A stretch of 64,000 bases of DNA from Escherichia coli 042. Lineage in GTDB: Bacteria > Pseudomonadota > Gammaproteobacteria > Enterobacterales > Enterobacteriaceae. Position 1 is the stretch's first letter. The number at the start of each line of letters is the position of its first letter. The position numbers and the translations under genes are program-made. Where the stretch lies: NCBI RefSeq assembly GCF_000027125.1, contig NC_017626.1. One strand, written 5' to 3'. Below are positions 19,659 to 20,813 of this stretch, piece after piece. The notes under the pieces are model-generated. The model was not told where the DNA came from, did not search any database, and saw only the letters and a program-made list of their open reading frames with translations.

Positions 19659-20813
19659 ATGGATAAAAATTTTATACTAGATATTGCAGTAAGTACTACT
19701 GATCCCCGGAATAATAAAGAGTTTCTTTGGATTAGTTATAGTATGAACAATCTGAGTCCGGCCAAATGTGAAAGAGCATATTGGATGACTCTGGAAAAAA
19801 GATGTCTTTCTTTATTTATGGAAAACGGATATGATCTTCAGACAGGAGCATGGTTCTGTCTTATTTCAGCCAATCTATATAGCTGGGAAGGACTGGCGCT
19901 TTCCTCATGGAAATTTGCAGATTCATTTGTAAAAGAAAAATGCTGGCCTCATGTTACGGCCACTCAGATGCGGACGAATATTCTTATCTGGTATATTAAA
20001 AATGTTATTCCTGCTATGCAAAGTCTGCCTGATGATGAGAAAACCTACTCGTCATTAACCTTGCTGGAGGATGCATTAACATTATTGGCTGATCTCGAAT
20101 ACAATCTTCTTTCTGGCAAATTTTTTATCGTTTCAGATATGCTGGCTGAACTCAAGAGACAAAAGAGTGATGACTCAGAAAGTACTGATGCCGCACATCA
20201 TGATTCAGGATCACATGATGCGAAAGATATTCGGTCTTTTAGCAGTGGTTTACCTACGAATATTGACTCCAATTATACTGCTGGACCAGAACACAATACG
20301 TTAATTAAGAAAGATAAGAAACTGCGCATATATTATAACGTCGTTTCTTTCATATCGGGTGCTCTAATAACCGTTGTAATGAACTATGCTGGCAGGCCGG
20401 AAACAGTACTGAAACTTAGGGGCATCATACCTGATAGCTTTATTACTGAAATGGTTATGAACTATTCTGGATGTTCAGTCTCCCTCCCTAATTCAGCAGA
20501 CTCCTGGTCTAAGCTTGGAAAGAAGATTGATGATTTTACGGAAACACTGAATGTAATTGAAAATGATGGGGGGTATATTACTATATCTAAGTTGAAAACG
20601 ATTGCTTACGATCTGAAAAATACCTTTCTTGAGTATGACATGCCTGTAAATATAAAAATATCAGACTTATATAATAACCAGAATATGAGTAAAGTTGATA
20701 TCAACAGAGAGCTTGAAATGATACAGCATAATATTAACAAGTTCAATTGTGAGATTGGCTATTTAAGGCTGAGAAATGAGGGACTATTAAAGGATAAGGT
20801 TAGAGAAAAGTGA
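19659..20813 (+). CDS. Hypothetical protein with ImpA_N-like N-terminal region (TssA/TagA/VasL-like)
   Basis: 384-aa ORF. Residues about 40-95 (YWMTLEKRCLSLFMENGYDLQTGAWFCLISANLYSWEG, KCWPHV) align by eye with the ImpA_N signature of the tssA product at 5485-6561. Confidence 0.45.
   Translation: MDKNFILDIAVSTTDPRNNKEFLWISYSMNNLSPAKCERAYWMTLEKRCLSLFMENGYDLQTGAWFCLISANLYSWEGLALSSWKFADSFVKEKCWPHVTATQMRTNILIWYIKNVIPAMQSLPDDEKTYSSLTLLEDALTLLADLEYNLLSGKFFIVSDMLAELKRQKSDDSESTDAAHHDSGSHDAKDIRSFSSGLPTNIDSNYTAGPEHNTLIKKDKKLRIYYNVVSFISGALITVVMNYAGRPETVLKLRGIIPDSFITEMVMNYSGCSVSLPNSADSWSKLGKKIDDFTETLNVIENDGGYITISKLKTIAYDLKNTFLEYDMPVNIKISDLYNNQNMSKVDINRELEMIQHNINKFNCEIGYLRLRNEGLLKDKVREK

Follow-up and report, generated by a model that had tools for sequence, protein, structure and literature searches.

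We consider it likely that the open reading frame at 19659–20813 of the window, by which we mean the whole 64,000-nucleotide stretch of DNA analysed here, encodes a TagA/TsmA-class subunit of the AggR-regulated aai T6SS, one that is accessory to the machine rather than essential, that is separated from clpV by insertion sequences and that is probably still transcribed. The cluster itself is taken, from the literature and from synteny, to be the AggR-regulated aai (Sci-2) T6SS of E. coli, which is of the rare T6SS-i4b type. The aai system, a poorly understood one in its biology, belongs to the AggR virulence regulon and provides a diagnostic marker (aaiC). The reading proposes a specific role for what is probably a gene listed only as a hypothetical protein in the RNA-seq study of EAEC 042 (PMC6392122), and it would mean that the functional aai cluster extends beyond clpV despite the IS debris. 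In the window, the T6SS core genes that are intact in the RefSeq annotation are tssF, tssG, vgrG, DUF6931, PAAR, tssA, tssJ, tssK, tssL, tssM and tssH. A 104-aa ORF between tssK and tssL (8579–8893, +) has no Pfam match and is absent from the RefSeq annotation. As the original prediction stated, the tagA-like gene shares an AT-rich compositional block with this core, the GC fraction being 0.36–0.44 over 1–22 kb, except for the IS-containing 16–17 kb (0.52), and about 0.5 from 26 kb on.

RefSeq names the product 'VasL domain-containing protein' (WP_000359994.1), and two Pfam families are matched by its 384 residues. ImpA_N (PF06812) is matched over residues 14–111 with 27.0 bits against a cut-off of 26.9, a margin of 0.1 bit, and VasL (PF12486) over residues 277–364 with 32.2 bits against a cut-off of 27.3, the latter match covering only positions 55–141 of the 147 in the profile. 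Since both families were also matched in all 17 of the 17 diverged homologues scanned, down to 42% identity, the domain assignment is independent of any one near-threshold score. The original prediction had pointed to an ImpA_N-like similarity to the tssA product (5485–6561), and this was borne out not only by the Pfam search but also by BLASTP (E = 2e-5, 25% identity over 73 residues, with residues 28–97 aligned to 44–115), in which the alignment runs through the very motifs that had been named, W42..C49, DLQ at 59–61, LYSWEG/LYALEG and CWP at 95–97. Similarly, a profile of the tagA-like family aligned with the TssA of the cluster over 67 columns in hhalign (E = 4.5e-4).

The TagA, class B or TsmA proteins are defined by an ImpA_N domain, followed by a region that is transmembrane or hydrophobic and, at the C-terminus, by a VasL domain (PMC6745524). 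The 384-aa product has the N-terminal ImpA_N domain, a hydrophobic region after it, as predicted from hydropathy and from an AlphaFold2 (AF2) model, and, at its C-terminus, a VasL domain to which the profile match is partial; its gene belongs to a T6SS cluster and, where relatives lack the IS block, comes immediately behind tssH. This architecture and synteny lend support to the earlier suggestion of a TagA/VasL-like accessory protein, and on sequence grounds the product is a TagA/VasL-type (class B ImpA_N, TsmA) protein of a known class. Because the class is known and automatic annotation already gives the product a VasL domain, the basic finding is an ordinary one. Our search of the literature found no experimental work on this protein. 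A second, degenerate tssA was also considered as the identity of the gene and was rejected, with no VasJ match and no match to queries made from the short EPxxP or the long-TssA C-terminal domains. Against TIGR03362, the product scored 23.1 bits, where the cut-off is 230.1.

The AF2 model of the product, built on a 78-sequence alignment, is all-helical with a mean pLDDT of 85.5, and it divides into the parts listed in Table 1. Fold comparison matches the model to TssA Nt1; PDB sequence searches with the protein and with the family profile gave no meaningful match. The strongest hydrophobic 19-mer comprises residues 222–240 and has a Kyte-Doolittle value of 1.54, which puts this copy at the borderline for a transmembrane segment. 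Across the family, the top hydrophobic segment falls at one alignment column in 76 of the 78 members, with a mean value of 1.93 and with K/R richer on the N-terminal side. In the C-terminal domain, a 'TISxLKT' motif has T308, S310 and K313 invariant across the 78 sequences, and the other residues invariant in short and long relatives alike are D15, P16, R17, W42, G57, L60, Q61, G78, W96, P97 and R105.

Table 1. Coordinates of the tagA-like gene, of the parts of its product and of neighbouring features in the window.
Feature	Position	Strand	Remarks
tssA, short TssA1-clade form, 358 aa, presumed partner	5485..6561	+	TIGR03363 228.6 bits, cut-off 160.85
tssH/clpV	12894..15443	+	immediate upstream neighbour of the tagA-like gene where relatives lack the IS block
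IS3-family copy, near full length but frameshifted	15586..16896	+	143 bp after tssH; 93.5% identity to an IS copy of locus L002
2.3-kb foreign block between the IS copies	16897..19190	.	decayed tssB fragment and 188-aa ORF
Internally deleted IS3-family (IS629/IS1203-like) remnant	19191..19594	+	same IS as the first copy and in direct orientation with it
Native leader, about 65 bp	19595..19658	+	GAGG immediately ahead of the ATG; 79% identity to the sequence that precedes the orthologue in locus L005; bordered by IS on its upstream side
tagA-like gene	19659..20813	+	ATG-initiated ORF, 384 aa, zero internal stops
N-terminal helical domain, residues 1–179	19659..20195	+	TssA Nt1-like; Pfam ImpA_N match at nt 19698–19991
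Disordered acidic/polar linker, residues 185–213	20211..20297	+	pLDDT <50; poorly conserved, gapped in alignments
Hydrophobic helix (predicted membrane anchor), residues 216–244	20304..20390	+	AF2 helix; KKDKKLR before it
C-terminal helical domain (short VasL), residues 247–383	20397..20807	+	Pfam VasL match at nt 20487–20750
Downstream 135-aa ORF (probably aaiU by position)	21198..21605	+	homologous in part only to a 207-aa ORF in locus L004

The charge bias around the hydrophobic helix predicts an N-in/C-out topology. Contrary to this prediction, a cytoplasmic C-terminus is suggested for V. cholerae TagA, because C-terminal mNeonGreen fusions of that protein fluoresce, at the cell periphery (PMC6745524). 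Two cysteines of the C-terminal domain, C272 and C364 (codons 20472–20474 and 20748–20750), are both present in 21 of the 78 sequences, the remaining 57 having neither. All the carriers of the pair belong to one clade, made up of E. coli, E. marmotae, Yersinia and close metagenomic relatives, so the co-occurrence counts as one event and only hints at a disulfide. Such a bond could indicate a periplasmic C-terminal domain, and the short VasL domain with its C272/C364 pair might thus lie in the periplasm.

The proposal that the T6SS locus originally extended further was confirmed by a synteny comparison with intact T6SS loci, in which the tagA-like gene is found directly downstream of tssH. For example, plasmid A of E. 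coli M8 has the order tssB, tssC, hcp-like, tssE, tssF, tssG, vgrG, DUF6931, PAAR, tssA, tssJ, tssK, tssL, tssM and tssH, followed by a 692-bp spacer and the VasL gene. The E. marmotae locus has the same order over the part read, from tssA onward, with the tagA-like gene 0.69 kb after tssH, and among the Escherichia plasmid versions the spacer after tssH measures 0.7–1.75 kb. In Yersinia enterocolitica and in one metagenome contig, tssH and the tagA-like gene overlap by 4 nt, which suggests co-transcription and possibly translational coupling; the tagA-like gene also follows tssH in Rahnella, Tatumella, Ewingella, Enterobacter soli, Mangrovibacter and Buttiauxella. Relatives that lack the IS block have the tagA-like gene as the final one of their T6SS operon, immediately behind clpV.

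The position given in the original prediction, about 4 kb past clpV and beyond two decayed IS629-like copies, was accurate: the gap between the end of clpV and the start of the ORF is 4.2 kb and contains two IS3-family (IS629/IS1203-like) copies. By blastn, homology of the window to the plasmid loci breaks at 15586 and resumes at 19594. Of the native spacer, about 140 bp next to clpV and about 65 bp ahead of the ATG survive, and the middle, about 475 bp, has been replaced by a 4-kb IS-bounded block. RefSeq labels the first IS copy 'IS3 family transposase, frameshifted; internal stop' and the second 'transposase, frameshifted, internal stop'; within the latter, 19191–19526 and 19520–19594 match the two ends of a single IS copy of locus L002 by blastn. 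One more IS3 copy, intact and absent from the window, is present in the foreign block of FORC_069 and related strains (locus L001, 17328–18490; near window position 17990), so IS activity in the clpV-tagA spacer is ongoing.

Two further elements were observed inside the foreign block. The first is a decayed 5' tssB fragment ('MSSSFQDESSKTRGHLKPDLHTGGAQKKIVLPQDE...') at 17244–17432 (+), which appears to come from another T6SS type, since it is unlike the aai-type TssB. The second is a 188-aa ORF at 18614–19180 (+), probably aaiS, with a sub-threshold Peptidase_C80 match (E = 0.026; E = 0.014 for its L002 homologue), which could be an effector. A homologue with 71% nucleotide identity by blastn lies downstream of the tagA-like gene in loci L002 and L003; the 188-aa ORF, being upstream here, has therefore been rearranged. 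No similarity was detected between this ORF and the 189-aa neighbour in Yersinia.

The identity and expression of the gene can be approached through EAEC 042. In the RNA-seq study of Yasir et al., aaiO/EC042_4577 is followed by two transposase pseudogenes, aaiR, aaiS, two more transposase pseudogenes, aaiT/EC042_4582, aaiU, a transposase pseudogene and a transposase, with aaiR, aaiS, aaiT and aaiU listed as hypothetical (PMC6392122 Table S3). The gene order of the window after the T6SS core is the order of that table, and, judged by gene order only, the ORF is probably aaiT/EC042_4582. Literature searches with 'aaiT' returned only unrelated uses of the term. In the aggR mutant, aaiT/EC042_4582 is down by log2 1.91 (p = 1.5e-17), as are all the genes listed after aaiO, IS pseudogenes included (PMC6392122 Table S3). 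Because the IS pseudogenes at the equivalent 042 positions are AggR-activated too, read-through transcription is indicated, and from the 042 gene order and RNA-seq together, transcription of the tagA-like gene probably starts at the AggR-dependent aaiA promoter and reads through to it. A promoter and terminator scan of 19100–21300 found no enrichment over shuffles and no convincing sigma-70 promoter upstream of the ORF.

These results also bear on an alternative that we regard as unlikely but worth weighing, namely that the gene is an intact-looking relic, uncoupled from the clpV operon by the IS block, that in this lineage yields no useful amount of product and takes no part in aai T6SS function. 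The replacement of the native spacer, which left only the short native leader, would fit a relic, as would the scan in which no promoter stood out upstream and the decay of neighbouring genes. It would also fit that aaiA-P are cited as enough for AaiC secretion (Dudley 2006, as cited in PMC6730261). Moreover, about 43 of 5,426 complete E. coli genomes, O104:H4 outbreak strains and other EAEC-type strains among them, have a chromosomal island with 99.5–100% identity to the region; these 43 near-identical copies represent one recent shared island and therefore offer no evidence of selection since the IS event. However, the ORF is without lesion, unlike its neighbours, the AggR activation of the equivalent 042 genes points to read-through across the IS pseudogenes, and the Escherichia plasmid versions, in which a spacer also follows tssH, keep the gene under purifying selection.

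If the protein is a TagA/TsmA-class subunit of the aai T6SS, then by analogy with Sci-1 TagA and V. cholerae TagA its hydrophobic helix would tie it to the inner membrane, where it may stop sheath polymerisation and hold the sheath extended until firing; it would, by the same analogy, be accessory to the aai machine and not essential. The characterised TagAs of E. coli Sci-1 and V. cholerae are found at the membrane, and their mutants have over-long, bent or detached sheaths and partial activity (PMC6745524, PMC7545191). An accessory role is consistent with the cited sufficiency of aaiA-P for AaiC secretion. The characterised TagAs work with a long TssA, and deleting the C-terminal part of the long TssA is approximately equivalent to deleting tagA (PMC6745524). 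Since the partner TssA has a different C-terminal domain here, the capture mechanism may differ.

It is also conceivable, if rather improbable, that the protein acts as a regulator at initiation sites and not as a distal clamp. V. cholerae TagA makes a brief appearance at initiation sites, prevents assembly if it is overproduced, and binds TssK, TssE, TssF, TssL and TssM (PMC7545191, PMC6745524). In the aai cluster the partner TssA is of the short kind, and P. aeruginosa TssA1, also short, has been reported at the baseplate; in addition, the short VasL domain is unlike those of the characterised clamps. Set against these points is the architecture of the protein, which is that of the distal anchors.

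The length of this putative TagA-type anchor was examined among its relatives. A profile search of 1.84 billion representative proteins gave 164 clusters at E ≤ 1e-3, and the matches grade continuously from forms of 357–384 aa to proteins of 410–480 aa, some of which are named VasL in their source (e.g. Rouxiella, Erwinia). The short forms are without 60–75 residues directly after the hydrophobic helix, a segment that corresponds to positions 1–54 of the Pfam VasL profile. No member of the clade of the 384-aa protein has the first third of the VasL domain, and, because the alignment shows the segment to be absent throughout the short forms, the shortness is a feature of the clade and not local decay. 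Identity of the product to canonical VasL proteins is 16–24%, in the range of the 19.3% that two characterised TagAs share with each other (PMC6745524).

Homologues at 42–74% identity are 357–384 aa long and align with the product from end to end, as do those of E. coli, E. marmotae and Yersinia enterocolitica, and dN/dS against two orthologues is 0.22–0.25 overall and 0.15–0.17 in the N-domain. The tagA-like gene is therefore not a fragment; it is full length and has evolved under purifying selection, which rules out the option, raised in the original prediction, that a larger gene has decayed and left its N-terminal domain here. More generally, the ORF as a remnant of that kind or as a second degenerate tssA can be practically dismissed: it is shorter than the 410–480 aa of canonical TagA/VasL proteins, its VasL match is partial and it is surrounded by IS debris, but its length is common to the whole clade down to about 25–30% identity (Yersinia, Rahnella), with start and stop matching, the dN/dS values speak against decay, and a TssA-type C-terminal domain, whether EPxxP short or VasJ-type long, is absent.

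Homologues of the tagA-like gene were found in 100 of the 5,426 complete E. coli genomes (1.8%), a frequency that matches the reported rarity of T6SS-i4b in E. coli (PMC12282107). In 51 of the 100 the homologue is on a plasmid (80–240 kb), so, apart from the EAEC island, it is mostly plasmids that carry this type of T6SS. In aai-type clusters on plasmids of E. marmotae and E. coli, a gene of the AvrPphF/HopF family follows the tagA-like gene after a few kb (15245–15841 in locus L004 and 23072–23494 in L005; Pfam AvrPphF-ORF-2, E = 5e-11). This is a family of type III effectors, and by sequence its presence hints at eukaryote-directed cargo. In the window, the 135-aa ORF that follows the tagA-like gene is probably truncated, given its partial homology to the L004 ORF. 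Beyond it lie two ISEc45 (IS110-family) copies, at 22128–23261 and 24245–25378 (+), IS66 debris, and pic, a serine-protease autotransporter gene, at 28840–32958 (-); the block with the T6SS, ISEc45, IS66 debris and pic is a mosaic pathogenicity island.

The presumed partner of the TagA-like protein is where the aai system differs from published models. The TssA1 clade comprises proteins of about 350 aa with Nt1, a linker and a 60–75 aa C-terminal domain with an EPxxP motif (PMC6232143). The 358-aa product of the tssA gene is of this kind: its N-domain matches B. cenocepacia TssA Nt1 (6hs5, 5.9e-16), its C-domain matches 6h8f (1.4e-12), and EPTSP at residue 315 is the EPxxP signature. It is the only TssA of the cluster, so the reported association of TagA with a long VasJ-type TssA does not apply here. 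In the published split, a long TssA goes with TagA and distal anchoring, and a short TssA with TagB/TagJ, baseplate stabilisation and immediate firing. The survey of Bernal et al. 2021 covered 100 T6SS clusters, the aai-type cluster being absent from its dataset, and a 2024 paper still terms TagA 'TssAL-associated'. Relative to these models the aai pairing is unusual, because the TssA is of the short TssA1 type. No TagB (pentapeptide-repeat) or TagJ (ImpE) protein was found in the aai-type cluster.

The same pairing recurs elsewhere. A gene for a TagA-like protein (357–469 aa) occurs together with a short TssA (351–363 aa, with a C-terminal domain homologous to that of the window) in the window, in one E. 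coli plasmid locus and in 13 others, which are from Yersinia enterocolitica, Y. massiliensis, Rahnella (three), Tatumella, Ewingella, Enterobacter soli, Mangrovibacter (two), Buttiauxella and two metagenome contigs. For the Escherichia plasmids the count is of one locus, because only there does the flank extend as far as tssA; in the other three Escherichia loci it ends sooner. Two clusters, L008 (6590–11392) and L020 (Yersinia massiliensis), have a longer TagA-like gene of 463–469 aa right after tssM, with no clpV between, and still hold a 357-aa short TssA. Since the loci examined show the pairing repeatedly, the combination of TagA with a short TssA is conserved in an enterobacterial lineage from which the published rule drew no sample. 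A plausible but still tentative extension, on which we would not yet insist, is that the short TssA1-clade TssA has a TagA-type membrane anchor as its conserved, functional partner in an Enterobacterales-wide lineage (aai, Yersinia, Rahnella, Tatumella, Ewingella, Mangrovibacter, Buttiauxella). If this is true, the split between long TssA/TagA and short TssA/TagB-TagJ is not general, and TagA can capture the sheath end independently of the VasJ-type C-terminal domain of the long TssA. The aai system is a natural test case for the rule that TagA works only with a long TssA; if its short-TssA sheath is distally anchored, firing dynamics could not be predicted from TssA length alone.

Among the known systems, the closest comparison is with Sci-1 TagA of enteroaggregative E. 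coli (EC042_4550; Santin et al. 2018) and with the class B/TsmA proteins of Schneider et al. 2019, which share the ImpA_N N-domain, the hydrophobic segment, the VasL-type C-terminus, a gene in a T6SS cluster and an accessory character. The protein described here differs in several respects: it belongs to the aai/i4b subtype and not to Sci-1, is about 60–100 residues shorter, is without the N-terminal third of VasL, and is paired with a short TssA1-type and not a long TssA2-type TssA. V. cholerae TagA/VasL (VCA0121) has the same Pfam families and the same order of parts, and Pfam calls the VasL family 'EvfB, or VasL'. Canonical VasL proteins of 433–479 aa sit with a TssA of 526–532 aa (ImpA_N plus VasJ) in Rouxiella, Erwinia and Pantoea, whereas the short-VasL clade of the 384-aa protein sits with the short TssA1-type TssA in at least 10 enterobacterial genera. 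In contrast to the TssA1-clade proteins themselves, such as B. cenocepacia TssA and P. aeruginosa TssA1, the 384-aa product has no EPxxP ring-forming C-terminal domain, and carries a hydrophobic helix and VasL instead. TagB and TagJ, the sheath stabilisers of short-TssA systems (Bernal et al. 2021), would share its functional slot and have no homology to it. What departs from the known TagAs is the short VasL form and the consistent pairing with a short TssA; the rest is ordinary.
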